Shown: positions 1 through 62,426, counted from the first letter of the stretch. The stretch: DNA of 64,000 nt from Candidatus Woesearchaeota archaeon (GCA_043771635.1 JAYVHA010000007.1:2233-66232), one strand, 5' to 3'. The notes: generated from the letters alone by a model not told the origin. A program made the numbers and translations.

Positions 1-3000
1 TGCTCTCACAGATCCAATAGATAATAAACAAACTGCCTCACAGCGTTCTGAACCCAGCTCACGATCCCTTTTAATAGGTGAACACCCTCACCCTTGGCCG
101 CTTGTGCACGGCCAGGATAGGAAGAGCCGACATCGATGTAGCAAGCCGCGCCGTCGATTTGAGCTCTCGGGCGCGACAACTCTGTTATCCCCGGAGTAAC
201 TTTTCGGTCATACCTAACTCCCATCAAGGAAGTATAGGGGTTCGCTAGGCCACGGTTTCCCGACTGGAATCTGTCTTGTTATGATTCCAGTTAAGCTGAC
301 TTTTACCCTTGCATTCTACGTCCGATTTCTGTCCGGACTGAGTCAACCATTGGGCACCATCGATACCGTTTCGATGGTGTGCCACCCCAGCCAAACTGTC
401 CACCTGCAGGTGTTCTCTTGTGGAGTAAGCGATGTAATAATCGAAGGGTAGTCTTACACCTTTCGCCTCCCCGTTACCTGGCGGCAACGGATCGACAGCT
501 CCTACCTATACCTCTACAACAATCATCACACCACAGCTACAGGCTACAGTAAAGTTTCACGGGGTCTTCACTTCCCATTGGATCTCTCTGGCTTTTGCAC
601 CAGAAAAGAGTTTTCGGAGGGTTCCAGATGGGGACAGTGGGAATCTCGTTGCGCCATTCATGCAGGCCGTCAATTAAACGGCAAGGCATTTCGCTCTGAT
701 TTGTTACTGTCTTCGTAAGAAGAACTGGCATACTAATTTCTTGCACGCTCAGAAGTAAAACTTCTGGCGTCCCGAAACTTTCGTTTCGTGGATGCTCTGC
801 ATATCGCTATGCAGGTCGGACTCTATCTTCACACTTGCGTGCGTTCAGCGTATTAGTCTCTGAGGATTCTGTACTTGCGTACAGTCTTTCCTGCTGATTG
901 GCTCCAGCACACGAATTGTCACTGCTCTTTCGAGCGAGTATCGGTGCATACTATGAATTTGTTACAATTCACGTACAAGAAATCTCTATTTCTGTGTACC
1001 GAGCTTTTCCAGCATATGGCTGAATTAACACTCACAGCCTCGCGGCCATGGTGCAGAAGTTCTTGCGAAATCCTTATATCTCGAATTACTTGGCGCGTCT
1101 GTTTGTTTAACAAGCAACTACTCGAGTCTTAAAGCAACGATTTACCTTAAGAGAGTTATAGTTACCCCCGCCGTTTACCAGCCCTTAGCTCGGTTGAACC
1201 CGAGTTTTAGGTACTGGCACTGGGCAGACGTCACCAGCTATACTCACCCTTACGGGCTTGCAGCTAGTTGTGTTTTTGTTAAACAGTCGGACCCCCCTAG
1301 TCACTGCGCCCTGCGCTCGCCTTGCGACGAGTACAGGGACCCCTTATGCCGAAGGCACGGGGCTATTTTGCCGAGTTCCCTCACCTGGATTGATCCCTTC
1401 ACACCTAAGGCTTCTCACCTAGGGGCACCTGTGCCGGTTCTGGGTACGGACAGAGTGGACTTGTATGCACTCCTTTTTCATGGGCACCAGGCATCAGCGT
1501 AATACAACTTGCGTCATACCATTCCTATGATTACTCCTCCGCTCATCGCTACGATACTTGGAGGACTTGCCATAGTTAGCGGCTCATCGCCGTACACCTA
1601 GCCCGATGCGTCAGTAGTTGCAATTTCGTTGCCGACTACCACTCCGGTTCCGGACTATTAACCGGATTCCCTTTCCGCGATACCTCGTTTTCCGAGGTTC
1701 GTTAGGACCGACTAACCCTCGGCTGATTTACATTGCCGAGGAACCCTTGCCCTTTCGGTGACGTGGATTCTCACCACGCTTTGATCCTACTATCACCAGG
1801 ATGCTCATTCCTGCGCGCTCCACCACAACTCACGAAGTGGCTTCTACGCACGCAGGACGCCTTACCTACCGCACACCCAATGGGTGGCCTAATGTATCGG
1901 TGAGCAGTTTAAGCCCCGTCCGTTTTAGGCGCCCGCGCTCTTGACGAGTAAGCTGTTACGCACTTTTTAAAGGATGGCTGCTTCTAAGCCAACCTCCTCG
2001 CTGTCTGTGAGCGCAGACAACCTTCACCCTTTAACACTGAACTGCTACTGTGGGACCTTAACATTAGTCTGGGTTGTTCCCCTCTCCCAGCGCAAGTTTA
2101 CCCCGCGCCGGCGTCTCCGGACGTCTACGATGTCCACGCATTCGGAGTTGGACAAGAGCCCGAACCCTTTCGAGTCCTGAAGCCCCAATCCGTCGCTCTA
2201 CCGCGCAGACTATCTCAGTCCAGGCTTGACTACGGCCAACTTTGGTAGGAACCAGCTATCACGGTTCTCGATTGGCTTTTTACCCCTACTCCCAGGTCAG
2301 AAGAACACTTGTACGTAGAACCTCTGCGGCCCTCCACGCAGTTTTACCCGCGCTTCAGCCTGCCCAGGGGTAGATCGAACCGCTTCGGGTCGTAAATCTG
2401 TGACTGCAGGCACTTTCATACCTCGCCCCTCATTGCTTGCGGGCTTGTCGCTTTCGCTACGCATACCTCTCTTCGAGTTATGCTTGCCACTGACATACAC
2501 TCCCTGGCTCGTTATTCAAAACGAACGATGCACGACCAATCTTTCGGCCGCGCATCACACTATCAGTAATTGGTTTCAGATTCTTTTCACTCCCTGTTAC
2601 GGGTTCTTTTCAGCTTTCCCTCGCGGTACTATTCGCTATCGGACTCTATTTGTGTTTAGCGTTAGAGGTTGATGCCCCCTATCTTCATGCCTCATATCCA
2701 AGAGGCACTACTCTTGTGCAACCATTACCCTTCCGCATACCCCTACGGGTCTGTCACCCTCTCAGGAGCCTCGTTCCAGAGGACTTCGGGTCTGCGGTGT
2801 CGGGTAGGCGATGCACCCACATCTCCTGCATATTTCTATGCACGATTCAGTTTGCGCTGTGCCGTGTTCAGTCGCCCTTACTAGCGGCATCTCAATTGAT
2901 TTCTCTTCCTGCGGTTACTAAGACGTTTCAATTCACCGCGTTCGCTATCCTTTCGGATTCCATGGCGAGGTCGCATTCGGATATCCCGGGTTCAATCCCC

Positions 3001-3100
3001 GCGTGCGGGTCGCCCGGGCTTTGTGCAGCTTGCCACATCCTTCTTCGCCAATAGAGCCAAGCCATCCACCAATTACTATCATTATCAGATCATTTAATTA
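1..3100 (-). rRNA. rrl: 23S rRNA, partial (3' end lies left of window); contains ~445-nt intervening sequence
   Basis: Reverse complement of 1-230 reads GGGGATAACAGAGTTGTCGC...CATCGATGTCGGCTCTTCC (23S domain V). rc of ~540-565 gives AAGACCCCGTGAAAC. rc of 3040-3095 gives GGTGGATGGCTTGGC..GGCGAAGAAGGATGTGGCAAGCTGC (23S 5' region). Boundaries approximate. Confidence 0.9.
696..1142 (-). other. intervening sequence/intron inside 23S rRNA (no ORF), inserted in the helix 69-71 region
   Basis: Exon sequence on the rRNA sense strand reads ..GTAACTATAACTCTCTTAAGGTA | ~445 nt | AGCGAAATGCCTTGCC..CCTGCATGAATGG. The universally contiguous GGTAGCGAAAT is interrupted. Junctions are approximate to a few nt. 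Confidence 0.6.
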
Positions 3101-3380
3101 TCACCAAAGGTGTTATTTCCGAAATTCTACGGTATTGCTACTGTAAAATCCAGTCTTAACTTATATTGGAATCATCCCTGCCTATGCACGACCACATGAA
3201 CGTAATGTTGGACATTCGTTTAGGTCCTGTGAGCCACAAGTTTCCTTGTGACTGGCACCCCAATCTCTCTTTGGGGACACGCACGTATTGCGCCTGGTTT
3301 GGTCATTTAACTTTCGTTATTTGACCGATGGACTCGCCGGTAACCGCGCACTTTCGTGCTTGGGAACCGTCTTCGTCCGA

Positions 3381-3452
3381 TGGACTCGCCGGGATTTGAA
3401 CCCGGAGCCTCCCGCGTGCAAGGCGGGCGCTCTACCGTTGAGCTACGAGCCC
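3381..3452 (-). tRNA. tRNA-Ala (anticodon TGC) in 16S-23S spacer
   Basis: rc = GGGCTCGTAGCTCAACGGTAGAGCGCCCGCCTTGCACGCGGGAGGCTCCGGGTTCAAATCCCGGCGAGTCCA. Cloverleaf with 7-bp acceptor stem (one G-T), anticodon loop CTTGCAC, T-loop TTCAAAT. No encoded CCA. Confidence 0.85.
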
Positions 3453-3631
3453 TTCCTTGCGGAGGCTTCTCCATCCTGCTGTTTCCAGCCGGACGGCAGA
3501 GTCCTAAAATATATACACGGAAAGTCTTTCGAAAATTCACCTTAGTTACCACGCCACGTGTTTAACTAAAGTTCAACCTCTCATTTACTGACAATCATCG
3601 CCCGAAAGCGCGACTATCTTAAAATAGAGTG

Positions 3632-5102
<1,471 letters not shown>

Positions 5103-6661: not shown

Positions 6662-7384
6662 TTATCGCTTTTTTTTACTCCGCCGTCCTTCTTGCAGTAA
6701 ATCTATCTCCATTTCTTGCATCTCAAGTAGGCGATGCCACTGCTGTTGCGTCAGATAATCAATCTTTTCGTGCAACTGCCGTATCTGTAGTTCCGCCTTG
6801 AGATTAACTTTGTAATCGTTTTCAGCGCGCAGTTCACTGCGCTTGCTCTGTACGTTTTGACTAATCATAATGAACGTAGCTAGAAAGATTGCCTCGAGTG
6901 AAACCACCATAGTTAACAGACCATACGGGAAAGGATCGAACACAAGACCCGCGCCAAAATGCCCGTCGTTTACCAGAATCCAAGCTATAAACCAAACGAT
7001 ATGTAAGCAAACAAAAAGCATGGAGCCGGAGAACGCAGTAATCGCATCAGAGATACGGATACCAATAGTGCGTTTGCGCGCTATCTGTGCATCAATGTTG
7101 CGTGCAAGAGTCTCGTGATTTATTAGACTCTTAATAACCTCGTGATCAATTTTTGTCAGTTCACCTTTTTCTGCAAGAAGTACATTTTCAATGTGCTTTT
7201 GTCTAAAAGTAACGAGGTCACGTCGACAAACATAGTCCGTCACCTTAAGTTTTGGATAGCGCTGCGCAACTAGTTCTGCAACACTTGGACGAATGCTCTC
7301 GAAAATGCGACACTCTGAGGCGAGCTTATCTTTACCGCATATTCCGCAAACTACGACGCGCCGCGGTACAAGTATTTTGCTCAT
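6662..7384 (-). CDS. DUF1003-family membrane protein with N-terminal Cys-rich (zinc-ribbon-like) segment
   Basis: Motif FDPFPYGLLTMVVSLEAIFLATFIMISQNVQSKRSELRAENDYKVNLKAE. N-terminal CGICGK..C. 4-nt overlap with upstream paralog. Confidence 0.55.
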   Translation of the reverse strand: MSKILVPRRVVVCGICGKDKLASECRIFESIRPSVAELVAQRYPKLKVTDYVCRRDLVTFRQKHIENVLLAEKGELTKIDHEVIKSLINHETLARNIDAQIARKRTIGIRISDAITAFSGSMLFVCLHIVWFIAWILVNDGHFGAGLVFDPFPYGLLTMVVSLEAIFLATFIMISQNVQSKRSELRAENDYKVNLKAELQIRQLHEKIDYLTQQQWHRLLEMQEMEIDLLQEGRRSKKKR

Positions 7385-8238
7385 ACGTCTGAGCCGTCCA
7401 TGTCACGAATACGCTCCTCTTTTGCATCCTCCTTACGGCGCTTAAGTTGCTCGAGGCGCTCTGCCAGCTGCGGCTTACTTTCTTTAGGGTGGAGTTGCGC
7501 GCGTAGCTGCTCTTCCTCGACTAGATCTTCTTGCTCTTTAAGTTCGCGCAGGAGCGCAAGAATCTCAGCCACTCCTTTCTCAGACTTTATGTTCGTTTGA
7601 TAATCAAGTTCTGCGCGTAGTTCACTACGCTTATTCTGTACGTTTTGGCTAATCATAATGAACGTAGCTAGAAATATTGCCTCAAGCGACACTATCATAG
7701 TTAGTAGACCATACGGAAACGGATCAAACACAAAGTCAGCACCGAACTGACCACCATTAAGCGCAATCCAAAAACCGAACCAAGCAATGTGGACATACAC
7801 AAACGTCATGCTGCCCGCAAAATTGGTAATAAGTTCTGCGATGCGTACCTGCACAGTTTCTACTTTTTCATATTCTACGTTCAGGTTTTTTGCTATGAAG
7901 TCAATAAGATTGTCAGTTGGTACCCAGCTAACTGCATCCGGCGCAACTTCTCCCTCGTCAGGAACTGTAAAATGCTCGCCTTTTTTGTACGCTTTCAGTT
8001 CATCGTTTTCTAGGCATTCGTACACTCCTGAGAAGGGTACAGTGTCGCCTACCGAATACTCACTCTTTCTGAGTAAGCCTAGATGGTATCGTCCGCGTTT
8101 TGCTGCGACGTTAACATCTCCAATAAGTTCGTCAGCCGATGGTATCGCGCCATTTGACGAACTAGATTTTGCTCCATCAGGCGAGGCGACTTGAGTCGGA
8201 GTTGCTTTTAAATCCTGATGTTCGCGATCGTCACTCAT
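7381..8238 (-). CDS. DUF1003-family membrane protein (paralog); start taken at internal Met (MSDDREHQ..)
   Basis: FDPFPYGLLTMIVSLEAIFLATFIMISQNVQNKRSELRAELDY near C-terminus. The maximal ORF runs to 8409 but would overlap the divergent gene at 8379. Confidence 0.5.
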   Translation of the reverse strand: MSDDREHQDLKATPTQVASPDGAKSSSSNGAIPSADELIGDVNVAAKRGRYHLGLLRKSEYSVGDTVPFSGVYECLENDELKAYKKGEHFTVPDEGEVAPDAVSWVPTDNLIDFIAKNLNVEYEKVETVQVRIAELITNFAGSMTFVYVHIAWFGFWIALNGGQFGADFVFDPFPYGLLTMIVSLEAIFLATFIMISQNVQNKRSELRAELDYQTNIKSEKGVAEILALLRELKEQEDLVEEEQLRAQLHPKESKPQLAERLEQLKRRKEDAKEERIRDMDGSDV

Positions 8239-8378
8239 AATAAATTGTGGAACTTGCGCTTTTAAACCGTTCCGGTTTATGTGTAAATTCTCAGCGGGAA
8301 TCCTTGGAGAGATTGACTCGGCCCAATAACGCAAGCGACATCCATAACACCTATAAACGCAGCCTTCTCCATACCTGC

Positions 8379-8876
8379 ATGAATTCGCGAAAATCAAACA
8401 AAAATCCAAATTTTATTGTGTTCGCGACACTTATGCTCATAGCACTATTTGTTTCGGCTTGCTCACAGAGTACGCCCCTGACCTCACCAGTAATCCCTAA
8501 TTCTTCGACACCAGCCCCAATAGTTCCGACACCAGAGGTTCGACCTCCAATAGTTCCAACACCAGTCATACCAGGTGCTCCTGAGGAGAAACCAGTATCG
8601 CCACCTATTGTTACTGAGCCCGCACCTACAAAATCAGAAAGTATTACGGCCGCGGAACTTGCCTCTCACAATACCCGCAGTGACTGTTGGGTCGGATTTC
8701 AAGGAAACGCATACGATGTTACAGCTTGGCTTCCCAGGCATCCTGGAGGAGTTAGTTCAATCGCACGATATTGTGGAACTGCAAATGAGTTTGCTCAAGC
8801 ATTCGCGAATAAGCACGGAAGTGGAAAGGTCAATCTTCTGAAGAAAGAAGGTACACTAATGGGCGCGCTAGCCTGA
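8379..8876 (+). CDS. secreted/lipoprotein-like cytochrome b5-like heme-binding domain protein with Pro/Thr-rich linker
   Basis: Signal-like MNSRKSNKNPNFIVFATLMLIALFVSAC. PT-rich repeat (PIVPTP). C-terminal b5 fold motif DCWVGFQGNAYDVTAWLPRHPGG. Confidence 0.55.
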   Translation: MNSRKSNKNPNFIVFATLMLIALFVSACSQSTPLTSPVIPNSSTPAPIVPTPEVRPPIVPTPVIPGAPEEKPVSPPIVTEPAPTKSESITAAELASHNTRSDCWVGFQGNAYDVTAWLPRHPGGVSSIARYCGTANEFAQAFANKHGSGKVNLLKKEGTLMGALA

Positions 8877-8887
8877 GTCATAATAAA

Positions 8888-9832
8888 TTACTTTGAGCTC
8901 GAAGACGCGCGGCCTGTCGAAACATAATGCGTTATTGTGCCACGCTCGTTAGTAACGGGAGTGATTTTCTTTTCTTCATAGTAGAGTTCTCCGTTCTTTT
9001 TCTTGTCTATAAATATTTCTTGAAACGTCTTTCCTGCCTTAATGGTTTTCCAAAGCCGCTCGTAAAATTCTCGCCCGTACACACCTGACTTCAGCACACG
9101 CGGGTTTTTCCCTAGCAACTCGCGCTGCGTATATCCCGATGACTTCTCAAATGCTTCATTCACATATTCTATGCTGCCCTTGCTATCAGTAATGCAAATA
9201 ATTTGTTCTGAATCCTTTATCGCCGCTAGTGCCGACGCAAGTTCGTCACGAATTGAGCATAGTCGAGTGCGGTTTTCTACAAGAATAATTAGCAATGGCT
9301 TGTCTCCATTTAAGCGCGTAATTGTAAGTCGGACTAATGAATCAAACTTATCTTTTAGCTCCGGCGATGCGCTCACTCCAGAATCAAACTGTCGTAATAG
9401 TAGTTTGCGCAGAGAAACGCTGGGCTTCGCCGTAAGAGTTTGGGCAAATGCTTTTCCAAGGCCACCATATACTTCCTGAAAGGCCGCATTTGCACGGCAC
9501 ACCATAAGACTATGATCGACTATTGCAAAACCTGTCGGCACTTCTTCAGTTACTTGGGCAAGCAATTGCCTCGTAAGCGGTAATGCAGACGATAGTGATC
9601 CTGATTGTAGCGGCGAGCTAGGATACCAAAGCGTCGCTGCACCCACTTTTCGATGTATCGCAATCCCTTCGATTTCTAGAAAGTGCAGATGCTTGGCCAT
9701 TGTGTGACGCTCCATCCCAAGCGTCTGCGCAAGACGCATCGTTGTGATTCCATCCAGTTTGTGTGTAAAAAGTGCCCTAACAATCGTTTCATGTCGCCAA
9801 GATGTTCGTACCATAAACACACTAGTATTCAC
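8888..9832 (-). CDS. transcriptional regulator, N-terminal winged-helix HTH plus PAS sensor domains
   Basis: N-terminal HTH-like region (MRLAQTLGMERHTMAKHLHFLEIEGIAIHRK). PAS-like blocks (ELLGKNPRVLKSGVY..FYERLW.., ITPVTNERGTITHYV). Confidence 0.55.
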   Translation of the reverse strand: MNTSVFMVRTSWRHETIVRALFTHKLDGITTMRLAQTLGMERHTMAKHLHFLEIEGIAIHRKVGAATLWYPSSPLQSGSLSSALPLTRQLLAQVTEEVPTGFAIVDHSLMVCRANAAFQEVYGGLGKAFAQTLTAKPSVSLRKLLLRQFDSGVSASPELKDKFDSLVRLTITRLNGDKPLLIILVENRTRLCSIRDELASALAAIKDSEQIICITDSKGSIEYVNEAFEKSSGYTQRELLGKNPRVLKSGVYGREFYERLWKTIKAGKTFQEIFIDKKKNGELYYEEKKITPVTNERGTITHYVSTGRASSSSK

Positions 9833-9919
9833 GTATTTAAATAAACTACCTGTACTGGTAATAAATTGAATTATAGCTTATATAGTTACTAGATTTTACC
9901 AGTATATGAGGGGATACAT

Positions 9920-12900
9920 ATGAGCAAAGTATCTGCGAGTAGCTTTTTCGCAATGTTTATACTGCTAATTTCAACCGCAGGTGTAAGCGCGCTTCCCGCG
10001 GGCTTTGAGCAAGTAAATGTTTTTACGGGCCTTGACAGCCCTGTGGCTGTGCGCTTCGCACCTGATGGTAGCGCGTTCGTTGCGGAGAAAGGGGGCAAGA
10101 TACAGTATTTTGCAAATCTAACAGCGACTAAAGTACTTACTGCTGACTTTAGTGCTGATGTGTATTCAAATGATGGCACCGATACAGGCTTGCTCGGTCT
10201 TGCTGTACACCCTCAGTACGGCGCCGGCAAAAATTATGTCTATGCACTATACACTCGCGAAAATTCTGTCTATCCTAGCGGACGACTTGTCAAACTGACA
10301 GTCAACCCACTCACAGGAATTATGCTTGACAGCGAAACAATTCTTGAAGGTTGGTGCCAAATGTCAAACACGCACTCCATTGGAGACTTACACTTCGGTC
10401 CCGACGGCGCACTTTATGTAAGCGGCGGGGAGGGCGCAAGTGCAGATAGCCTTGACTATGGACAAGTCGACTCGTCATCATACCCAGGTCAAACGTGCCA
10501 AGATCCGTTTGACGAAGCTGCAAACATACGCGAAGGCGGCTCGCTACGAAGCCAAGATATGATGACGGACACAGACCCGACAGGTCTCTCAGGTGCCATC
10601 CTTCGCATTGATCCGGAAACGGGACTTGCTATGCCAGGAAACCCTAACTACGGCAATGCTGATGAGAACAAAGCACGCATAATTGCATTCGGAGAACGTA
10701 ACCCCTACCGATTCACATTCCACCCACAAACAGGAGAAATTTGGACACAGAATACGGGCTGGTATAGCTGGGAAGAACTAAACCGCATTGAAGACCCAAC
10801 AGACGCCGTCATTGAAAACTTCGGCTGGCCGTGTTTCGAAGGCGACGTAGCTCAACCTGAATTTAAAACTAAGAACATAAGCATTTGTAATGCGCTTTAC
10901 GCAGATGATACTACGACTAAACCACATATTAAATTTACGTATGGCGATCGAAGATCCAGCTCAGGCCTTGCCTTCTACGAAGGAAGCACGTATCCTGCCG
11001 AATATAATGGAGCTCTGTTTGTAGCGGACGTAATTGGATACTTCACGCAAACTGATACTATCAGAGTAATTTATCCTGATGCTGATGGCTTGCCTGACGC
11101 GAGCCACATAGAATCCTTCGCAGGCCCATCCCTCGGACCTGTAGACTTGCAACTCGGTCCGGACGGTCTCATTTACGCAGCAGACATTTCTACATACACA
11201 ATTGTTCGAATTGAATATCATGCAGCAAACCCAGAAAGCTTTGGTACGCTCGCAATAACCAGTACTCCTCAAGGTGCAAGCATATCAATCGACGGAGCAC
11301 CACAAATTAACAGAACACCTACATCATTTGTGCTGCCGCAAGGAAATTATAGCATTACGTTAAGCATGACTGGTAGAAAAGATGCTACAGTTTCTACTAC
11401 TATAACCGCAAACAAGACAACGGACGTGCCTGTTTTGCTTGCAGTGGTAGATACTGGTATGCGATTTAATGCGGGCGGGCCAACCTATATTGACACGCAA
11501 GCTCGAACTTGGGCGCCCGACACAGCATACGTCATTGAACCAAGCGACTTTTTCACAAATCCCGCACCTATTTCTGATTCAGTTGAAGACGCACTATATC
11601 AAAGTGAGCGCTCGGCAATTCCAGGTAGCACTCAACTGGGTTACGAGTTTCCCGTACCAAATGGTAATTACATCGTCACACTACACTTCGCCGAAATTGA
11701 TTCTGCATTTCACCTTGAAGGGCTACGCGTATTCGATGCCTATGCTGAAGGAGAGGTAGTTAAGAACGACCTAGATATTTATGCGATTAGCGGCGCAGAC
11801 ACATCTAGTTCATACTTTACAACCGTGCCAGTTAGCGACGGAAACCTTTCAATTAACTTTGATGCCTCTGCAGGGTATCCTAAAGTTTCCGCAATTGAAA
11901 TTGTTCCGGTAGCAAATCAGTACACGTGCGCAGCAATCCATCAACATGACGATCCACTTACGGATTGCTGGCTCGTAGTTGACAGCTCTGTTTTTGACGT
12001 TACTGAAGCCTCGAAGTGGCATCCCGCAGCATACCACTGTGGAGAGAACATATCGGAAAATTATCATAGCAATCACGGACTTGTTATTAGGCCGCAGATG
12101 CTCAAGTTTCAAATCGGAATAACTGCCGATGTATGTCTGGCATACCAGCCAGAAGTAAACAATACTGATCCTAATCCAGTCACTGAACTATTTGTGCCTG
12201 AAGGCAGCTGGAACCCGCTTGAACTTATTAGTATTGTAGAGAGTACCAGCCACTCACTCCTGTTTGTTGACGGCACAACACACTCGCCAGTAGCGAGAAT
12301 TCATGATATTGGTGATAGACCCCACACTTCAGTATTCAGCCCTGAGGGCGATTTAATGTACATAATTTCGCGAGACGGATGGCTCTCAAAAATTGACTTG
12401 ACAACCTTAAAAGTAGCAGATTCAGCGCACGTTGGTGAGGACGCGCGCGGCACAGCAATAACTTCAGACGGCGCCATAGTGGCGGTCGGCAACTACGATC
12501 CACGCACAGTCGTACTGTTGAGCACACAAACTCTATCGACACTTGCAACATTCGAGCTAGTAGTAGAGCAGAATGGCACTAACGTAACATCACGCGCTGG
12601 TGCGCTGCTTGAGGATGGCGACAATATAATCGTTGCGCTTAAAGACGTAAATAGCGTATGGGTTATTGATGCTAAGACACTAACAGTTACACACAAGTAC
12701 TATAACATCGGCTCAAGCCAAACCCCACTTCACGATGGATTCGTCACGCCGAACGGTCAATACTTTATCGTAGCGGCGCAAGGCTCGAACACTGCATGGG
12801 TGCTAGACCTGGATACAATGACGCCTGTCGGTGAAGTACCCACAGGCCGTACGCCGCACACCGGCCGCGGCGCAGTATGGGGCGACTACGCGTTCGTTCC

Positions 12901-15250
12901 TGCGCTCGGCGAAGGCAATATTACCGCAATTGACATGCGCACTTGGGAGCCCGCAGCATACATTGCAACGGGTGGCCCTGGACTCTTTGTTCGAAGCTAT
13001 GATGCAAATCCACTGTATCCTTACGTGTGGGCTGACACCTCATTTGGGGAGCACCGCGACGAAATATATGTTATTGACGGTGCGAGCCTTAAGATTGTGA
13101 AAACACTCGTGCAAATTCAAGGCAATACTTCCATGCAACCAGAATTTACGAGAGATGGACGTTACGTGTACATTGCAGTGACTGACGGTGACGCAGTATA
13201 CGTATATGATTCGCTCACGTTTGAAATCGTAGCTACACTTGAGGCTACTACGCCGACCGCTATTTCCGCTATTGGAACCAGATTGCCTGTGCATTCACCA
13301 GTAACAGACAATAACATAATTGCGCGCATAAATGTCGGCGGCAATGCTTACAATGATTCGCATGGACAGCAATGGTCGGCAGACACTTATCCGCTTGATA
13401 CACATACCGTATCATCCAGCGCCAACATTAAGGGAACTGTTGATCACGCAATTTATCAGAACGCGCGGCGTACGGACGCGGACGCGCTCACGTACGCATT
13501 TGCAATTCCTGATGGGAAATACCAAGTTAGATTACATTTTGCAGAACTAGGTGCCTTTGAAGCAGGAATTAACGTATTTGACATTATAATCGAAAACGAA
13601 GTGGTGGAAAACAATTTTGACATCTTTGCAGCGGCAGGTATGGCGGCCGCCGTAGTTAAGGAGTACTCAACCACCGTTTCAGACGGAGTATTAACTGTCG
13701 CACTTAATCATAAAGAAGGCGAGCCGCTACTTGCCGGCATTGAAATTATTGCGCAAGATGCTGCGTGCTACGAACCGCAACCAGGCACTTATGTCGCGAA
13801 CGGCGATGATATAGTGGCCGCAACTAATTGGAACCTGACGCAAACTGTGACTGTTGAACTTGGCGAATTCTCCTTTAGTCCAAGTATACTGGCGCTCGAA
13901 GTAGGGCAGCCATACAAAATTATACTTAACAACACAGGACTAATCAAACATGAATTCGAGGCGGAAGAATTCTTCCGCACAGTTGCCTTGCACAAAGCGC
14001 AAGACACACATGCAGAAGTCAAGACAGCGTACTTTAGTGAAATTGAAGTATTTGCAGGAGAACAAGTTGAACTGTATGTAGTTCCATTAATCACAGGCAC
14101 CTATGCTATGGACTGCGCTATTACAGGCCACCACGAAGCAGGAATGTTCGGAAGCATAATCGTGACTGGTTCCGCGACTATTAGCCCGGCTCCGGTTATT
14201 GCACAGGTCTCAGATGGCGACTGGGTGCAGAATGCCGCTAACGTGATAGCAGGTGCGAATTGGACCAACATGCAAACTGTACGCATAGAACTTGATGAGT
14301 TCTCATTTAGTCCGAACAGCCTCGCGTTTGAAGTTGGAAAACCGTACAAGGTCGAGATAGTAAATATAGGAGTCACGCAGCACGAATTTGAAGCGGAAAG
14401 TTTCTTTAGAACTACCGCATTCAGAAAAGCTCAAGACGAAGCAGGCGAATTCAAATCACCATTCGTGCGCGAAGTTGAAGTATTCCCAAGTCAGCAATTG
14501 GATCTTTACTTCATACCCACTAAAGCCGGAACGTTTGGACTTGACTGCGCCATTGCAGGCCACCACGAAGCAGGAATGTTCGGCACAATTACTGTGAGCG
14601 GAAGCGACCTTGAGCAACTTACTTGTGCGCGTCCAACCGGCGCTATGCGTGTAATGTCTTCACCAGCTGGCGCAGCTGTGTTTGTCGACGGCATAAACAT
14701 AGGTGCTGCGCCGGCGACATACAACGCAATTCCGGGCGAGCACACAGTACAATGCGAACTCTCAGGATACACTAGCAGCACAGTCGCCGTGACTATTACC
14801 ATAGGAAGTACAACTGAAGTGGACTGCGACTTACAACGAATAATTAAGCGCAGTTCTGGTGGAGGCGGCGGTGGAGGAAGCAGTAAGCGCATAACAGCCA
14901 TCAATGTAACAAACAATACAGCAGCTGTGCCGCCAGTGAATACTGAAACGGCACCACCCGCACCGCCAGTTGATAAATTACCAACCTCTGACGCGACCTC
15001 AGGCGAAGGAGCTGCAGTTACAGCTAGTGACGCGCAAGCACAGAATGAATTGCAAGGGAGTACAGCACGCGCACCTAATAGCGAGCAAGAAAGTCCTTCA
15101 GCACTCACAGGCGCAGTAACTGGGGAACCTAGCGAATCCACGCAAGGGATTAAGTGGAGGTACGTGTACTATGCCCTGGGAGCAGCAGTAATACTTGGCG
15201 CCGCAGCGCTGGTATTCCGCGCAAGGCGATTGAAACGTAGGCAGGCTTAA
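9920..15250 (+). CDS. giant (1776 aa) C-terminally membrane-anchored multidomain surface protein: GSDH-like beta-propeller, PEGA, malectin-like x2, cyt b5-like, YVTN beta-propeller, cupredoxin x2
   Basis: Signal peptide MSKVSASSFFAMFILLISTAGVSA. LPAGFEQVNVFTGLDSPVAVRFAPDGSAFVAEKGGKI (glucose/sorbosone dehydrogenase family). ARINVGGNAY..YQVRLHFAE (malectin-like). Two CAI(T/A)GHHEAGMFG type-1 copper motifs. PEGA-like MRVMSSPAGAAVFVDGINIGAAP. Gly7 and PT-rich linker. Terminal TM plus RRLKRRQA. Confidence 0.85.
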   Translation: MSKVSASSFFAMFILLISTAGVSALPAGFEQVNVFTGLDSPVAVRFAPDGSAFVAEKGGKIQYFANLTATKVLTADFSADVYSNDGTDTGLLGLAVHPQYGAGKNYVYALYTRENSVYPSGRLVKLTVNPLTGIMLDSETILEGWCQMSNTHSIGDLHFGPDGALYVSGGEGASADSLDYGQVDSSSYPGQTCQDPFDEAANIREGGSLRSQDMMTDTDPTGLSGAILRIDPETGLAMPGNPNYGNADENKARIIAFGERNPYRFTFHPQTGEIWTQNTGWYSWEELNRIEDPTDAVIENFGWPCFEGDVAQPEFKTKNISICNALYADDTTTKPHIKFTYGDRRSSSGLAFYEGSTYPAEYNGALFVADVIGYFTQTDTIRVIYPDADGLPDASHIESFAGPSLGPVDLQLGPDGLIYAADISTYTIVRIEYHAANPESFGTLAITSTPQGASISIDGAPQINRTPTSFVLPQGNYSITLSMTGRKDATVSTTITANKTTDVPVLLAVVDTGMRFNAGGPTYIDTQARTWAPDTAYVIEPSDFFTNPAPISDSVEDALYQSERSAIPGSTQLGYEFPVPNGNYIVTLHFAEIDSAFHLEGLRVFDAYAEGEVVKNDLDIYAISGADTSSSYFTTVPVSDGNLSINFDASAGYPKVSAIEIVPVANQYTCAAIHQHDDPLTDCWLVVDSSVFDVTEASKWHPAAYHCGENISENYHSNHGLVIRPQMLKFQIGITADVCLAYQPEVNNTDPNPVTELFVPEGSWNPLELISIVESTSHSLLFVDGTTHSPVARIHDIGDRPHTSVFSPEGDLMYIISRDGWLSKIDLTTLKVADSAHVGEDARGTAITSDGAIVAVGNYDPRTVVLLSTQTLSTLATFELVVEQNGTNVTSRAGALLEDGDNIIVALKDVNSVWVIDAKTLTVTHKYYNIGSSQTPLHDGFVTPNGQYFIVAAQGSNTAWVLDLDTMTPVGEVPTGRTPHTGRGAVWGDYAFVPALGEGNITAIDMRTWEPAAYIATGGPGLFVRSYDANPLYPYVWADTSFGEHRDEIYVIDGASLKIVKTLVQIQGNTSMQPEFTRDGRYVYIAVTDGDAVYVYDSLTFEIVATLEATTPTAISAIGTRLPVHSPVTDNNIIARINVGGNAYNDSHGQQWSADTYPLDTHTVSSSANIKGTVDHAIYQNARRTDADALTYAFAIPDGKYQVRLHFAELGAFEAGINVFDIIIENEVVENNFDIFAAAGMAAAVVKEYSTTVSDGVLTVALNHKEGEPLLAGIEIIAQDAACYEPQPGTYVANGDDIVAATNWNLTQTVTVELGEFSFSPSILALEVGQPYKIILNNTGLIKHEFEAEEFFRTVALHKAQDTHAEVKTAYFSEIEVFAGEQVELYVVPLITGTYAMDCAITGHHEAGMFGSIIVTGSATISPAPVIAQVSDGDWVQNAANVIAGANWTNMQTVRIELDEFSFSPNSLAFEVGKPYKVEIVNIGVTQHEFEAESFFRTTAFRKAQDEAGEFKSPFVREVEVFPSQQLDLYFIPTKAGTFGLDCAIAGHHEAGMFGTITVSGSDLEQLTCARPTGAMRVMSSPAGAAVFVDGINIGAAPATYNAIPGEHTVQCELSGYTSSTVAVTITIGSTTEVDCDLQRIIKRSSGGGGGGGSSKRITAINVTNNTAAVPPVNTETAPPAPPVDKLPTSDATSGEGAAVTASDAQAQNELQGSTARAPNSEQESPSALTGAVTGEPSESTQGIKWRYVYYALGAAVILGAAALVFRARRLKRRQA

Positions 15251-23294: not shown

Positions 23295-23846
23295 CTAAGC
23301 CGCGTTCCGTCGCTTCTTGTGCGACTCAACGTAAACCGCCGTTAAGTACGCAACAGCGAGCGCAAGACCGTACAAGAACAAGTATAGAAGCGCCGAGTAA
23401 TCAATCGTCTTTGTCAGGGAAAGTACAACAATCGCGAACCAGGTGACCACTGATACGCTGCCGGCAAGCGCAGCTCTCTTCATTAATGCTGGAGGGTAAA
23501 CGCCTGTGAGTACGCTTCGCTTAACTTTTGGCCAAAGTATGCGATGAAGAATATAGCCATTAATAGTCACTATAACGACTAGCGCGAGCTTAAGTTGGAA
23601 TAAACTATTACTCATGATAGAGGGTTTTGCCCATATAAGCAGCGCGCCCGTTACATAAATTATTGCTAAGCAGAGAATTATCAATTTGGATAGTACGGGA
23701 TACAAAAACAAGGATTGTTTCTCGAACCTAGCGCTGCGTAAACCAAGAATATGTATGTAGTCAGTGACAGTTACAGACCCGACCGCAATCATTACAGCTA
23801 GGATATGTATAACTAAAACTTTAGTTATTAGAAGCTCTAGCACCAC
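23295..23846 (-). CDS. hypothetical polytopic membrane protein
   Basis: Hydrophobic ORF with 4-5 TM segments. Confidence 0.4.
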   Translation of the reverse strand: MVLELLITKVLVIHILAVMIAVGSVTVTDYIHILGLRSARFEKQSLFLYPVLSKLIILCLAIIYVTGALLIWAKPSIMSNSLFQLKLALVVIVTINGYILHRILWPKVKRSVLTGVYPPALMKRAALAGSVSVVTWFAIVVLSLTKTIDYSALLYLFLYGLALAVAYLTAVYVESHKKRRNAA

Positions 23847-24000: not shown

Positions 24001-24495
24001 CTAGATTTCTACGGCAACTTCGTTTCTGCGAAGAAACGGCAACGTCCACGGAGCGTTGTAGCCGAGGACAAACGGCGCTCCCTTCACCCGTATTTTTTCA
24101 GCCGCGAGTATCGCGAGAAGGCGAGCTATCTGCTCGTCTGTTTTCTGTTCAGAAGTAAATCCTGAGAAACGAAGAGCGGCTATGGTGCGCGCAGGAACGG
24201 ATTCAAGTTTCACTGCAGCGGAAATAGGCGCGGGCAACGACTGTTTAGAGTACTCTTCCGGCATAATAAACGCCATAGTGAATGTTTTTATCTTATGACT
24301 CATAACTACAGGAGCCGTCATCGCTATCTGCTTCTTCTCTTTGTTGCCGCCGAAAATATACGAGGCCACCTGCCGAAACGCCAGATTACGATCATCCAGC
24401 GGAAGTTCGGTCTTTGCCATTACGCACGCAGTATATGCGCGCACCTCTACTTCACCAAGCGTTCGTAGAAGGGTGTATTTCGCCTGTTCAACCAC
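24001..24495 (-). CDS. SOUL/HBP heme-binding family protein
   Basis: YTLLRTLGEVEVRAY..IAMTAPVV pattern typical of SOUL domain. 164 aa. Confidence 0.6.
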   Translation of the reverse strand: MVEQAKYTLLRTLGEVEVRAYTACVMAKTELPLDDRNLAFRQVASYIFGGNKEKKQIAMTAPVVMSHKIKTFTMAFIMPEEYSKQSLPAPISAAVKLESVPARTIAALRFSGFTSEQKTDEQIARLLAILAAEKIRVKGAPFVLGYNAPWTLPFLRRNEVAVEI

Positions 24496-35005: not shown

Positions 35006-36136
35006 ATGGTACAAAAAACTCCCTTCGTCATTAATGACATATTGTTCTTAGAAGAATTCTGCAATCTCGCATGCGGTTACTGTGAAGGTTTCTACCCGAC
35101 TGAATTCAAGTTCAAACCCCGAGAAGGCAAACTCCGTATGCCAACTTCATGGAAAGCCATGGTTGAAGCGGATCAGTCACTGCAAACACGCCTAAGCAGC
35201 GAACCAACTGTTGACAGTTTATTCGATGTCGGAAGAGAAGTGCTTGAGCGCATGAATGAAAAAGCAACCTACCCTATTCTGAAACTTTCAGGAGGCGAAA
35301 TATTTCTCTATGATAAGCTCGTTTCATTTGTTGAATCTATTCATGATCAATACTCAGGCGTTCAGTTACTCACGAATGGCGTTCTCTTTGGTGCCGCCGA
35401 GGTTGACCGTTTAGCGTCACTCGGGAACGTTTACTTTCAAATATCTCTAGATGGCGTTACACCACAAACAAACTCCTCGCGCTCTAAAAGTGGCGCAACA
35501 CTTGATCGAATACTACGGAACATCGATCGCATTCAAGATGCCGGCATGGGACTCGAAATAAACTGTGTATTAACGAATACAAACACTGATTCTTTCCTAC
35601 ATCTTGCGGAATACATGGCGCACCGCGGCACGTCTATTGTAATGCCTCGCCCAGTACGCGGACCACCTGCAAAAACGCAAGCGGCAAGCGATGAACAAGT
35701 GCGCGCATTTGCAACGGTTCGTGAGCGATATAATGATATTGGACACGTGCTTCCACCTGAAGCGTATCTTGATCGAGTCATTAGCGTACTCGAACGTAAG
35801 CAACGAAGTTGGGATTGTTTCGTGCCCTTTTTCGTACTCGGAGAAAACTATTACGGAAAAATTAACACCTGTACTTGTAGTGGAGCTTTACCGGTTCTTG
35901 GAAACGCACTTGACAAGGATACAACCGCATTCCACACACTGAGCACTCGTGCACAATACGATGCAAAGAGTAAGCCCGAGCCATGCGCAGACTGCATAAC
36001 GCAATACGAAGTGTTCAATCTGTATGCAGAAGGAAAAGTGACTGATGCCGAGCTTACCAAACTCGCGACATTCCGTGTACCAAACGCACTTGCAACAGCA
36101 CAGAGAATTAAAGCAGAGCTGCATACTTCGCGATGA
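35006..36136 (+). CDS. radical SAM enzyme (possible SPASM/twitch auxiliary cluster)
   Basis: CNLACGYC (CxxxCxxC). Extra Cys near C-terminus (CTCSG..CADC). Confidence 0.7.
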   Translation: MVQKTPFVINDILFLEEFCNLACGYCEGFYPTEFKFKPREGKLRMPTSWKAMVEADQSLQTRLSSEPTVDSLFDVGREVLERMNEKATYPILKLSGGEIFLYDKLVSFVESIHDQYSGVQLLTNGVLFGAAEVDRLASLGNVYFQISLDGVTPQTNSSRSKSGATLDRILRNIDRIQDAGMGLEINCVLTNTNTDSFLHLAEYMAHRGTSIVMPRPVRGPPAKTQAASDEQVRAFATVRERYNDIGHVLPPEAYLDRVISVLERKQRSWDCFVPFFVLGENYYGKINTCTCSGALPVLGNALDKDTTAFHTLSTRAQYDAKSKPEPCADCITQYEVFNLYAEGKVTDAELTKLATFRVPNALATAQRIKAELHTSR

Positions 36137-39851: not shown

Positions 39852-41603
39852 ATGAAACTAGTAGGGTTAAAACTAGCCTACATTAAGTCTTTTAAAACTC
39901 TGGATTGGAATATAGCCCGAACTAAGGTAATAATTGGTCAAAATGATCATGGCAAGTCCTCAATTCTTAAGATACTAAATTTTGTTCTGAACGAGATTAC
40001 CGACTATCATCTGGATCAAGGATTTTTGGAGCCTGCACTAGCAGAAAAACTAATTCCTGCATTTAGTACGAGCGCTCGCGCCAGGCGCATAACATTAATT
40101 GTGCAAGAAAAAAGCAAATATAAAGAACTGTATATTGATATTGGACGCAATTACTCCATAAAAGTTCATGATAAAATAACGCGGGGCGCTAAAACTACTC
40201 CTGCAGGCAAGAAGCTATTCACAAAGATACGTAGTAAAAATAGGTTTGAACTGGTACCAGCGATAAGAGACGTATCGTCAGAGATATATAAGCAGCTTTT
40301 TTCTACAACGCTACAGCAACACGGACTTTCAAAACTAAAACCCAAAGCCGCGGGTGGAACACAGAGAGAATACAGAGAACTACTAGCTATTAGAAATAGC
40401 ATCGATGAAATTATCCAGCCGTATGTACATAAACGATTGCTGCCCAAGTTAAGTGACGAATTTGGTTTCACGCCACAGCACGAACTTCTTCTAACATTCA
40501 ATAAGGATACAGAGGCAATTGCCGAATGGATTCAAAGCAACCTACAACTTGGTTTCAAATTAGGCAAGGAAGCAGAAGAATATATTTCAATTGATGAAGC
40601 GGGAACAGGAATACAAAGTGCCTTGCTCCTTGCGCTCATAAGATTAAAAAATAGAAGTGAAGCTGACAAGAATGTTCATTTTTTTCTTGCCATCGAAGAA
40701 CCGGAGACATTTCTACATCCACAAAAACAAAAAGAGCTTTACTCTAGCATCAAGGGATTGGAGTCTGATAACCTAACCATAATTATCACGACGCACAGCC
40801 CATACATTGTTTCTGAATCTAAATTTTCTAGCTTAGGGATAGTTCGCAAAGACGACAAGTTCTCAAACCTCCACACTGTGAAGAGCGTGCCACCAAAAGA
40901 TATGGACATATTTGACAGCTATAGTGGTGAAGTAAATTCACAATTGTTTTTTGCGGATAAAGTCATACTCGTAGAAGGAGAAAGCGATAAAAGAGTTATA
41001 GAAACAATTTTACACCGCAAATTTGGAGCCAAGTCATTTAGGTATACAGTAATTTCGGCGGCAGGCAACAGAAATTTTTCGCCATATCTAAAAATGATCA
41101 ACTGTTGGAAAGAATTGAAGATTCCTCATCTAGTTGTTACTGATTTTGATTCATTAACGGCGGGTAGCGATAGAGCCATGAATACTGGCGCAAAGGCCGC
41201 AGGATATTTGCTAAATGCTGAGCAACTGTTAAATCAAAACGTAGACGACGCGATTCAAAAAGATGAAGGCGAGTATAGAAAAATAGCCATTCAAGCAGCC
41301 AATTTCTATGCTCGTTCAGGATTAGAAGTATTCATTTGGACTTGTGACTTGGAGTATGCACTAATTTCGGATAGCAAAATAGACCCAATAGTTCGGGAAT
41401 TAAGTGCAGCGAACAATTCAAGCTATTCAGGCTACACTTGCGCTCAACTGCGTACATTAATCGGAAGCAAAGGCATCCCTCTAAACAGCGGATCAGATGC
41501 ATTAAAGAAACCGTACATACATCAAAAATTGTCGTGGCATTTAGACCTGGATGACACTGAAAGTGATGTATATCGTCTGATTCAAGCAATAAATAAGTTA
41601 TGA
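39852..41603 (+). CDS. OLD-family nuclease: N-terminal ABC-type ATPase + C-terminal Toprim
   Basis: Walker A GQNDHGKSSILK. Walker B/H-loop FLAIEEPETFLHP. Toprim ILVEGESDKRVIE and HLVVTDFDSL. Confidence 0.75.
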   Translation: MKLVGLKLAYIKSFKTLDWNIARTKVIIGQNDHGKSSILKILNFVLNEITDYHLDQGFLEPALAEKLIPAFSTSARARRITLIVQEKSKYKELYIDIGRNYSIKVHDKITRGAKTTPAGKKLFTKIRSKNRFELVPAIRDVSSEIYKQLFSTTLQQHGLSKLKPKAAGGTQREYRELLAIRNSIDEIIQPYVHKRLLPKLSDEFGFTPQHELLLTFNKDTEAIAEWIQSNLQLGFKLGKEAEEYISIDEAGTGIQSALLLALIRLKNRSEADKNVHFFLAIEEPETFLHPQKQKELYSSIKGLESDNLTIIITTHSPYIVSESKFSSLGIVRKDDKFSNLHTVKSVPPKDMDIFDSYSGEVNSQLFFADKVILVEGESDKRVIETILHRKFGAKSFRYTVISAAGNRNFSPYLKMINCWKELKIPHLVVTDFDSLTAGSDRAMNTGAKAAGYLLNAEQLLNQNVDDAIQKDEGEYRKIAIQAANFYARSGLEVFIWTCDLEYALISDSKIDPIVRELSAANNSSYSGYTCAQLRTLIGSKGIPLNSGSDALKKPYIHQKLSWHLDLDDTESDVYRLIQAINKL

Positions 41604-51218: not shown

Positions 51219-51541
51219 CAAAGGAAAAAACACTGACTAAGAATTTGAACGCAGACATCCTTGTTAATTTGTCCAATGTGGCAAGTAAAAAAAAAGTGTT
51301 CGAGATATTTAGTTCAGAACTATTTTTTCCAGAGTATTTCGGACACAACTGGGATGCGCTATATGACTGCTTAACAGACCTTGTTTGGCTTCCAAAAGTT
51401 AAAACAACTATTACAGTCTGTCTTCCAAAAAGGCTTTCTAACAATGATAAACTCGTTTTAGTAAGATTGCTTCAGGATGTAGACGCCTACTGGGAGCAGG
51501 AAAAGAGACATATTAGGGTCAAAATTGGTAATAACAATTAG
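51215..51541 (+). CDS. barstar-family immunity protein
   Basis: ELFFPEYFGHNWDALYDCLTDLVWLP versus barstar [26 protein letters not shown]. ATGA overlap with the toxin stop. Confidence 0.8.
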   Translation: MTKEKTLTKNLNADILVNLSNVASKKKVFEIFSSELFFPEYFGHNWDALYDCLTDLVWLPKVKTTITVCLPKRLSNNDKLVLVRLLQDVDAYWEQEKRHIRVKIGNNN

Positions 51542-56269: not shown

Positions 56270-56507
56270 CGGTAAAGTATAGTAGTACTGGCATTGTCTT
56301 CTGTTCGGAGAGTTTTTCGAGCCTGCTTAGCACTTGTTCTTTGCTTAGGCATAGCTCCATAACGTATTCTACTTTTGAGCTGCTTGAGCTGAATAGCTGT
56401 CGCACGGGTAATTTTAGATCTATTCTTCTTCGGCTATCGTTGTAGAGTACTTTCCCTGTTATGGTTACGATTTTGTTTGTTGTGCCGAATAGTATTTTTT
56501 CTCCCAT
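56235..56507 (-). CDS. hypothetical protein (90 aa)
   Basis: ORF lying between the ATPase and TFB genes in the same orientation. Confidence 0.3.
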   Translation of the reverse strand: MGEKILFGTTNKIVTITGKVLYNDSRRRIDLKLPVRQLFSSSSSKVEYVMELCLSKEQVLSRLEKLSEQKTMPVLLYFTDEGGEDSNAVL

Positions 56508-56617
56508 CCCGTATACATATACTGTATTTCATAATTTATCTACTTTCGCGTGATAATTTCAATGTATTTCCGGCGTTTCCGGATTACCGACGGCGCCACC
56601 CCTAAATCCAGGCCTAA

Positions 56618-61964: not shown

Positions 61965-62426
61965 TCCACCTCCTTAAGCTCCATATGAGCTATGGCATCC
62001 AAAAGCCGCAAATATGCCTCGACAGAACCATACTTCCAAGTCAGAAAAGCAGCACAAGAAAAGCAAAAAGCAACATCAGAACCAGCAAGCCGTCCACCAC
62101 ACAAAGCACATTCAGCTACAAACACCATACAAACCTAAGAATTGCGATGACTAAAGTAAGGAACTCAGAGAATGTATAACAAAGCCGGCACTTATCTAGA
62201 GCTAACTCGCTGCCAACGGCGACTGCATTTTTTACATGTATAATCTGTTCGAAAATCCGTTACAGCAACAGGTCTAGATTCTGTTCGAACAACAGACCAG
62301 TTAGAATGCCGCGACTATGTTCAAATCATAACCATTCTAACTCGGAGAATGTAATACGCATGACTGTAACATACCTGTCGCATACCCGACAAGCTTTAAT
62401 TCGCATAACACTTTTAGGTTAATGTC

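Follow-up and report, generated by a model that had tools for sequence, protein, structure and literature searches.

A predicted surface-anchored protein of 1776 residues from a Candidatus Woesearchaeota archaeon joins a GSDH-type propeller, a cytochrome b5 and d1-type propeller unit and tandem cupredoxins in a possible sugar-to-tetrapyrrole electron-transfer chain

The DNA analyzed in this study is a 64,000-nucleotide stretch from a Candidatus Woesearchaeota archaeon (GCA_043771635.1 JAYVHA010000007.1:2233-66232), referred to below as the 64-kb window. Its plus strand carries, at 9920..15250, a single open reading frame (ORF) of 1776 codons and a stop, uninterrupted by in-frame stops, whose product we call the mega-protein. 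Directly 5' of the gene lie 87 bp of A/T-rich intergenic sequence, in which TATA-like boxes stand at -86 (TATTTAAATA) and -42 (TTATATAG) relative to the ATG and a Shine-Dalgarno-like GAGGGG element lies 12 nt 5' of it. Gene calls on seven contigs drawn from Logan, NCBI and ENA assemblies, three of them 20-50 kb and four 50-200 kb long, give an identical 1776-residue protein. The ORF, first noticed in a model's sequence-only reading of this DNA, is thus real, and the possibility raised there that it would split into several genes on re-sequencing is answered by the independent assemblies, in which the gene stays whole. GC content and GC content at third codon positions (GC3) are similar between the domains of the mega-protein and similar to those of the flanking archaeal genes. 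The features of the gene are as follows.

9833..9919, plus strand: intergenic promoter/leader, common to the divergent gene for a putative PAS regulator (sequence read directly)
9920..15250, plus strand: whole gene (direct ORF reading; identical product on 7 contigs)
9920..9991, plus strand: signal-peptide-like N-terminus, residues 1-24, hydrophobic core 4-29, with putative cleavage at ...GVSA/LP (hydropathy scan)
9992..11227, plus strand: GSDH-type six-bladed propeller, residues ~25-436 (Pfam PF07995, PDB matches, AF2 and Foldseek)
11240..11452, plus strand: PEGA domain 1, residues 441-511 (Pfam PF08308)
11453..11905, plus strand: malectin domain 1, residues 512-662 (Pfam PF11721)
11906..12139, plus strand: cytochrome b5 domain, residues 663-740 (homologue profile against PDB)
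12197..13285, plus strand: eight-bladed cytochrome-d1-type propeller, residues 760-1122 (Pfam PF02239, phmmer, AF2, Foldseek)
13301..13765, plus strand: malectin domain 2, residues 1128-1282 (Pfam PF11721, best stretch 1134-1264)
13784..14179, plus strand: cupredoxin 1, residues 1289-1420 (Pfam PF13473, ligand alignment)
14213..14605, plus strand: cupredoxin 2, residues 1432-1562 (Pfam PF13473, ligand alignment)
14627..14845, plus strand: PEGA domain 2, residues 1570-1642 (Pfam PF08308, best stretch 1574-1640)
14846..15154, plus strand: Gly7 hinge (1647-1653) and P/T/A/S-rich stalk, residues 1643-1745 (sequence read directly)
15155..15247, plus strand: C-terminal transmembrane helix and basic tail RARRLKRRQA, residues 1746-1776 (hydropathy peak 1748-1768)

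Three units that are separate elsewhere, mostly in bacteria, are fused here: the GSDH propeller, a cytochrome b5 with a NirN/NirS-type propeller, and a pair of cupredoxins. Two malectin and two PEGA domains space them. The malectin family (Malectin/CBM57, PF11721) matches in two stretches at the level of the profile (170 bits, E 6e-50), and the two domains are 39% identical; both had been recognized in the sequence-only reading, where each was credited with the motif ARINVGGNAY, which is found only in the second (the first reads MRFNAGGPTY). PEGA (PF08308) likewise matches in two stretches (88.7 bits, E 2e-25). Hydrophobic segments occur at the two ends of the mega-protein only, and there are 18 N-x-S/T sequons. 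None of the 14 cysteines shows CxxCH or CxxC spacing; with two copper ligands set aside, the others can be read, from their positions and conservation, as six pairs. Since paired cysteines, signal peptide, sequons and C-terminal anchor all fit such a location, we infer that the mega-protein is extracellular, glycosylated and held in the membrane as a type-I protein. Surface anchoring had been claimed before, and it holds on the strength of the signal-like N-terminus and the C-terminal hydrophobic helix with its basic tail; the PEGA domains, Gly7, PT-rich stalk, transmembrane segment and basic tail listed with it were all found as well.

The central unit begins with the cytochrome b5 domain. 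Taken alone, this domain falls below the Pfam cut-off (PF00173, 16.7 bits against 23.7, E 7e-3). A profile of 19 b5 sequences searched against PDB retrieves 1CXY (bacterial b558) at the top with an E of 4.7e-14, then flavocytochrome b2 and microsomal b5 to 1e-11, and the b5 homologues of the mega-protein carry PF00173 matches. The axial histidines His701 (WHPAA) and His719 (NHG) stand at the ligand positions and Cys683 and Cys707 align with the two cysteines of 1CXY, all four residues being invariant in 121 homologues. The b5-like domain of the sequence-only reading is therefore upheld (profile E 5e-14, both axial histidines aligned).

The propeller that follows had been taken for a YVTN propeller, of the kind found in S-layer proteins, and this label is rejected. 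Pfam PF02239 covers profile positions 2-361 of 368 with 209 bits (cut-off 25.5, E 8e-62), and phmmer against PDB returns NirN (6RTD) at 3e-54, NirF (6TV2) at 6e-36 and NirS at 1e-14; the Methanosarcina S-layer propeller 1L0Q, at 2e-15, trails NirN by a wide margin. An AF2 model based on 120 homologues (pLDDT 91.8, pTM 0.87) points in the same direction: the best 30 Foldseek hits are all NirN, NirS or NirF, with 1L0Q in 31st place (TM 0.52), and NirN matches at 2.7e-32 with 32% identity and a root-mean-square deviation of 2.4 Å over 375 columns. The domain is an eight-bladed cytochrome-d1-type propeller. Residue roles, taken from the NirF structure paper (bioRxiv 10.1101/2020.01.13.904656), transfer by alignment or motif as follows (NirS in P. 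aeruginosa numbering).

His802: NirS H182 and NirF H48, iron ligand (alignment)
Arg818: NirS R198 and NirF R65 (alignment)
His938: NirS H327, distal His (motif LHDG)
Asp939: NirS D328 and NirF D185 (alignment)
His980: NirS H369 and NirF H238, distal His (motif PHTGRGA)
Arg983: NirS R372 (alignment)

In the alignment of the 121-sequence family, His802, Arg818, His938, Asp939 and His980 are invariant and Arg983 is not. The motifs LHDG and PHTGRGA compare with LHDG and PHPGRGA in NirS, and the position of NirS H327, occupied by Asp in NirN and Tyr in NirF, is His in the mega-protein. Arg843 lies at the position of NirF Ile90, where the arginine of NirN and NirS contacts the ring-B oxo/acetate groups (bioRxiv 10.1101/2020.01.13.904656). 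Because the equivalents of H182, R198, H327, D328, H369 and R372 and the ring-B arginine position are kept, the pocket looks NirS-like, despite an overall sequence that is nearest to NirN. Since the b5 domain precedes the propeller and CxxCH occurs nowhere in the protein, the unit parallels the "c-d1" arrangement seen in NirS and NirN, with a b5 in place of the cytochrome c, and can be called "b5-d1-type".

The GSDH-like propeller seen at the N-terminus is confirmed as a six-bladed fold with the catalytic His and an Arg-Asn pair (PF07995, 114 bits against a cut-off of 25, E 9e-33). Its AF2 model (pLDDT 83) retrieves 3A9G first by Foldseek (3.9e-21), then 3DAS and 1CQ1, and sequence matches in PDB include 2ISM, 3A9G and sGDH; HHIP and fungal AA12 rank as relatives only after the pyrroloquinoline quinone (PQQ) sugar dehydrogenases (3A9G, 3DAS, sGDH, 2ISM, Asd). 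His152 corresponds to the catalytic His144 of sGDH and aligns with the HxGG histidine of 2ISM and 3A9G, and Arg260/Asn261, the counterparts of sGDH Arg228/Asn229, fall on the conserved RNP; all three residues are invariant across the subfamily. C146/C193 and C305/C323 probably form disulfides.

In the tandem cupredoxins (PF13473, two stretches, 49 bits against a cut-off of 27, E 6.5e-13), the type-1 copper ligands are His1344, Cys1399, His1404 and Met1409 in the first unit and His1488, Cys1543, His1548 and Met1553 in the second, all invariant in 84 sequences. The ligand sets announced for the two units are thus complete on alignment; the description of the units as near-identical applies to the ligand loops, the overall identity being 55%. 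Their C-x4-H-x4-M loop aligns with the type-1 (T1) Cys/His/Met of ceruloplasmin. We reject the idea that the pair arose by a recent internal duplication, given the 55% identity and a tandem kept in all homologues. Some tandem or quadruple relatives (P0252, P0254, P0366) match PF23509, "MSMEG_3727, PQQ-associated" (on P0366, E 8e-10, no single stretch passing alone), which hints, by the family name only, at a link between this type of cupredoxin and PQQ enzymes.

The combination of these modules had been called unusual, and in the databases searched the architecture, built of known domain kinds, is unique. An exhaustive HMMER search with residues 441-1640 against 1.84 billion cluster representatives returned no other protein in which the b5-propeller occurs together with a cupredoxin or a malectin; the matches were single-module, to b5-propeller, multi-cupredoxin and multi-malectin proteins. 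The databases searched hold no homologue of the mega-protein at 50-99% identity, and neither a full-length protein search nor a scan of GTDB genomes gave a full-length homologue, the bacterial GSDH relatives covering 23-35% of the query. These GSDH relatives are 42-48% identical, and some carry malectin or PEGA modules as well as assorted carbohydrate-binding modules (CBMs) and PKD domains.

The b5-propeller unit has hundreds of relatives, mostly bacterial, with 50-56% identity over 97% of its length. Those collected here (P0126-P0245) are typically 500-780 residues long, with one or two b5 domains behind an N-terminal membrane domain of 5-6 helices, for which Pfam gives no match. Several of their genes sit on contigs of ~600-645 kb, which suggests small-genome bacteria as hosts. 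The tandem-cupredoxin relatives (P0246-P0365) are proteins of ~320 residues from Actinomycetota and Chloroflexota, 50-57% identical over both units; their neighborhoods vary, and one adjoins a cytochrome b/Rieske cluster. We inspected six loci of the two families for conserved operon partners, and nothing recurred. At one bacterial locus (L088 12327-13994), a gene for a FAD-linked oxidase (FAD_binding_4 / FAD-oxidase_C, D-lactate-dehydrogenase-like) starts 14 bp 3' of the b5-propeller gene; as a single locus, it is a possible clue to an electron donor. Our literature search found no paper describing b5 fused to d1-type/NirS propellers, and nothing on Patescibacteria with b5 and nitrite reductase.

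With the propeller relabeled as NirN/NirS/NirF type, the functional reading shifts toward a chain that would probably end in a NirS-like reductase site. We tentatively propose, at somewhat short of an even chance, that the mega-protein is a surface-anchored electron-transfer chain running from sugar to a tetrapyrrole site; its cofactors, direction of flow, substrates and coupling are what we infer from the modules present. The malectins would hold the mega-protein on a glycan, where the GSDH domain could oxidize an aldose or a reducing end using PQQ acquired from its surroundings. Electrons would pass to haem b5 and the two blue-copper centers, and from there to a tetrapyrrole in the propeller, in a pocket formed by the predicted ligand His802, distal His938 and His980, Asp939 and Arg818/843/983. 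The propeller site could then reduce a small oxidant such as nitrite, NO or O2. Azurin or pseudoazurin are donors to cd1 nitrite reductase, a precedent for pairing a cupredoxin with a d1-type propeller. The other pairings have precedents too: the fungal quinohaemoprotein pyranose dehydrogenase CcPDH is a single polypeptide in which a six-bladed PQQ dehydrogenase is joined to a b-type cytochrome and a CBM, and it feeds a copper enzyme (PMC4332668, PMC5960967), and all three known d1-type propellers pair with a cytochrome, NirS and NirN in cis and NirF with NirC (PMC13168839). The electron conduit suggested by the sequence-only reading is unsupported in a multihaem sense and was rejected: the CxxCH motif is absent, and the protein offers one b-type haem domain and one propeller site.

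Four neighboring genes may bear on this proposal.

8379..8876, plus strand: stand-alone cytochrome b5, 165 aa, secreted/anchored (Pfam Cyt-b5 E 1e-12)
8888..9832, minus strand: helix-turn-helix (HTH) and PAS protein, divergently transcribed (Pfam PAS_9 1e-15, PAS 1e-13, weak HTH_11)
23295..23846, minus strand: 183-aa membrane protein, CopD-like (weak Pfam CopD; hhalign)
24001..24495, minus strand: SOUL haem-binding protein (Pfam E 5e-44), adjoining 23295..23846

The stand-alone b5, encoded 1 kb upstream of the mega-protein gene, carries an anchor at its N-terminus and a linker rich in Pro and Thr. It belongs to the DCW...HPGG...CG...HG subtype, the same cysteine-containing type as the fused b5 domain with which it aligns, and it is a possible partner of the mega-protein. 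The HTH-PAS protein is, from its position only, a candidate redox- or ligand-sensing regulator of the mega-protein gene. The membrane ORF at 23295..23846, ~8 kb downstream of the mega-protein gene, encodes a homologue of the transmembrane domain found at the N-terminus of bacterial b5-propeller proteins, by hhalign (Prob 94.6%, E 6.7e-8, 164 columns; two control membrane proteins gave Prob 0.1%). Only the profile comparison is significant; BLASTP against one bacterial membrane domain gave E 0.064, which is not. This protein and the SOUL product may be a detached partner or a haem-handling pair for the mega-protein.

Several observations weigh against a sugar-to-tetrapyrrole chain. At the dehydrogenase end, the C-terminal Arg-x-Arg that binds the PQQ carboxylates (R406/R408 in sGDH, "RIRDV" in Asd and 7CDY) is absent from the GSDH domain; the aligned segment reads LGPVDL, as it does in the whole subfamily, and the use of PQQ is therefore unproven. 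Other arginines are invariant in the subfamily (R122, R210, R229, R253 and R264) and might substitute, by analogy with Arg273 of fungal AA12, which stands in and illustrates that PQQ arginines can shift within the fold (PMC6881789). PQQ binding is on this precedent possible, not established. The extracellular sugar oxidation put forward in the sequence-only reading is likewise plausible and, given the missing Arg-x-Arg, unproven. At the other end of the chain, position 775 is Ser where NirS has Arg156, and the propeller's overall sequence is nearer to NirN, a cofactor-maturation enzyme, than to NirS. Between the two ends, domain order on a long, flexible protein is no proof of intramolecular electron transfer. 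The genetic context also gives the chain no help: the 64-kb window contains no genes for haem d1 biosynthesis (nirE/DLGH/J/F/N), PQQ biosynthesis or nitrogen-oxide metabolism, and the bacterial b5-propeller neighborhoods inspected contain unrelated housekeeping genes and no denitrification genes. The window's radical-SAM gene (35006-36136) was considered as NirJ and rejected (46 bits against a cut-off of 515).

A somewhat unlikely alternative is that the mega-protein works as a set of tools: its modules, each competent to bind its cofactor, would act independently with external partners, with no electron path leading from sugar to propeller. They would have been collected on a shared stalk that presents them, much as other giant surface proteins of archaea do. 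Each module does occur alone in bacteria (b5-propeller, tandem cupredoxin, decorated GSDH), and malectin and PEGA spacers keep the modules apart. The same linkage is found in no other protein searched, and evolution therefore offers no co-occurrence signal for coupling. Independent modules are harder to reconcile with four redox sites whose relatives pair with one another (PQQ dehydrogenase with b-type cytochrome, cupredoxin with cd1-type enzyme), a set unlikely to have been joined by chance, and with a b5-propeller pair that is itself a conserved electron-transfer unit.

Still less probable, in our estimation, is a b5-propeller that serves as a NirN/NirF-like module processing or capturing a tetrapyrrole, for extracytoplasmic maturation or scavenging, with the b5 and the cupredoxins as electron sinks. 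NirN, which acts as a dihydro-haem d1 dehydrogenase, is the nearest solved relative whether judged by sequence or by structure, NirF with NirC likewise modifies a tetrapyrrole (PMC13168839), and both iron-ligating histidines of NirF are kept. The SOUL gene 8 kb off, adjoining a homologue of the bacterial module's membrane domain, fits such a role, as would haem scavenging in the small-genome bacteria that the ~600-kb homologue-bearing contigs suggest. The pocket argues otherwise: Asp replaces NirS His327 in NirN, and Tyr does so in NirF; here the residue is an invariant His within LHDG. In addition, a maturation enzyme permanently fused to sugar-binding and dehydrogenase modules makes little sense, and a client enzyme such as NirS is not evident.

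It is very improbable that the mega-protein is a redox-dead adhesin, in which the catalytic-looking domains are cofactor-less scaffolds and only glycan binding remains. Two malectins, two PEGA domains, stalk and anchor do recall the build of adhesins or S-layer proteins, the non-enzymatic HHIP has the GSDH fold too, and the PQQ Arg-x-Arg is missing; against this, the haem and copper ligands are all kept and invariant in their families (H701/H719, H802/H980 and both H/C/H/M sets), and the GSDH domain retains catalytic His152 and Arg260/Asn261. An artefact, whether a chimeric contig or adjacent genes read through, is hardly credible: the metagenomic source, and an archaeal contig whose nearest module relatives are all bacterial, invite the suspicion, which is countered by one product of 1776 residues that recurs on 7 contigs (20-200 kb) of different assemblies, an ORF free of in-frame stops, GC and GC3 alike across domains and flanking archaeal genes, and a location flanked by an archaeal rRNA operon and by the archaeal genes for ProRS and AdoMet synthetase.

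Other genes of the 64-kb window also mark the contig as archaeal. The 23S-tRNA-Ala-16S operon at 1-5102 is archaeal, with a complete 16S gene at 3635-5102 (minus strand), whose 5' end (ATCCCCGTTGACCCTGCGGGAG...) is unusually divergent, and tRNA-Ala(TGC) at 3381-3452 within the 16S-23S spacer. A group I intron at 797-1121 (minus strand; Rfam RF00028, 55 bits, E 3e-11) interrupts the 23S rRNA gene (1-3093). Group I introns in archaeal 23S genes have mostly been reported from Woese-, Pace-, Micr- and Nanohaloarchaeota (PMC6125680), lineages of DPANN type, and a DPANN-like host is on this basis a reasonable guess. Other archaeal markers are AdoMet synthetase, ProRS with ProRS-C_1 and TFIIB; a G1P-dehydrogenase-like gene falls below its NCBIfam cut-off. 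Two tandem paralogues of a DUF1003 membrane protein (6662-8409, minus strand) lie between the rRNA operon and the b5 gene. Further along, three huge ORFs stand in a row at 42046-54269 (plus strand), where AT skew is strongly positive: the first (1686 aa) has FG-GAP and RHS repeats, the second (1371 aa) three Laminin_G_3 domains and a C-terminal ribonuclease domain, and the third (914 aa) Laminin_G_3. The row resembles a system of polymorphic toxins or of contact-dependent surface proteins, here in an archaeon. The stretch at 55478-63809, where AT skew reverses, encodes a TFIIB paralogue, a VirB4/TraG-type ATPase of 999 aa whose N-terminus is PrgI-like, an ORF product of 673 aa without a family match and an N6/N4 DNA methylase, and may be an integrated conjugative or mobile element. 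An OLD-family nuclease at 39852-41603 (plus strand; AAA_15/AAA_21 ATPase with OLD-like TOPRIM) is a candidate defense gene at the edge of this putative mobile region.

If the sugar-to-tetrapyrrole chain works, binding, oxidation, relay and terminal reduction would all take place in one protein, wholly outside the cell. To our knowledge, no one-protein extracellular design of this kind has been known in prokaryotes. A working chain would also bring to light a relative of cd1 nitrite reductase that does without cytochrome c, of a sort that nirS-based surveys of nitrogen cycling would miss. A more far-reaching proposal, which we think unlikely, is that the b5-propeller proteins form a new class of NirS-type reductase, with b5 in place of cytochrome c, and that this class is common among bacteria with small genomes in which a respiratory chain is not obvious. 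The archaeal version would be hard-wired to a PQQ-type dehydrogenase and two blue coppers as a self-contained, extracellular and glycan-tethered sugar:nitrite (or O2/NO) oxidoreductase. Apart from the fusion, the analysis flags at least several hundred uncharacterized proteins with b5 and a d1-type propeller bearing NirS catalytic residues, and the sugar dehydrogenase and cupredoxin fusion partners provide a first contextual clue to the function of this b5-propeller family.

Comparison with known systems places the mega-protein among several. In NirS (P. aeruginosa 1NIR/1BL9), as in the b5-propeller unit, a small haem domain for electron transfer comes first and an eight-bladed d1-type propeller second; its haem domain is a cytochrome c with CxxCH, whereas that of the mega-protein is a b5, so the unit is not a NirS by that measure. 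The two propellers share ~22-23% identity, Ser stands in place of R156, the unit forms part of a surface protein of 1776 residues, and no nir genes lie near it in the 64-kb window. With NirN (6RTD) and NirF (6TV2) it has in common both iron-ligating histidines and the conserved Arg and Asp. NirN carries a cytochrome c and NirF no haem domain, whereas the mega-protein unit carries a b5; those two proteins act in periplasmic haem d1 maturation and adjoin other nir genes, and they lack the distal His that NirS (H327) and the mega-protein have. The Methanosarcina S-layer protein 1L0Q is likewise a beta-propeller of an archaeal surface protein and a detectable match; it has seven blades and no tetrapyrrole ligands, and its match is far weaker than those of NirN, NirF and NirS.

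At the dehydrogenase end, the soluble PQQ dehydrogenases (sGDH 1C9U, Asd 2G8S, PaeAsd 3A9G and 3DAS) resemble the GSDH domain in their six-bladed fold, in the catalytic His and in the Arg-Asn pair, which in them holds the quinone oxygens of PQQ; the GSDH domain is 17-24% identical to them and differs in lacking the C-terminal Arg-x-Arg. Its subfamily has features of its own relative to sGDH and Asd, namely EGGxLRSQD, NFGWPC(Y/F)EG and two extra disulfides. CcPDH (AA8-AA12-CBM1) and cellobiose dehydrogenase are similarly extracellular and join a sugar dehydrogenase, of PQQ-type fold, to a b-type relay and a CBM, and the AA12 fold is retrieved by the GSDH model in Foldseek. In CcPDH the cytochrome is an AA8 beta-sandwich (Met/His) and the CBM a CBM1, in the mega-protein a b5 and malectins; the copper acceptor of CcPDH, a lytic polysaccharide monooxygenase (LPMO), is a separate protein and there is no tetrapyrrole propeller. 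The resemblance is one of analogy, not orthology. Of the closest sequence relatives, the bacterial proteins with transmembrane, b5 and d1-type domains have the same invariant ligands as the mega-protein and are stand-alone, none with GSDH, malectin or cupredoxin modules. The stand-alone tandem cupredoxins share the C-x4-H-x4-M loop and the upstream HEF histidine (rusticyanin/ceruloplasmin-type T1); they are secreted proteins or lipoproteins, whereas in the mega-protein the pair has become an internal module.

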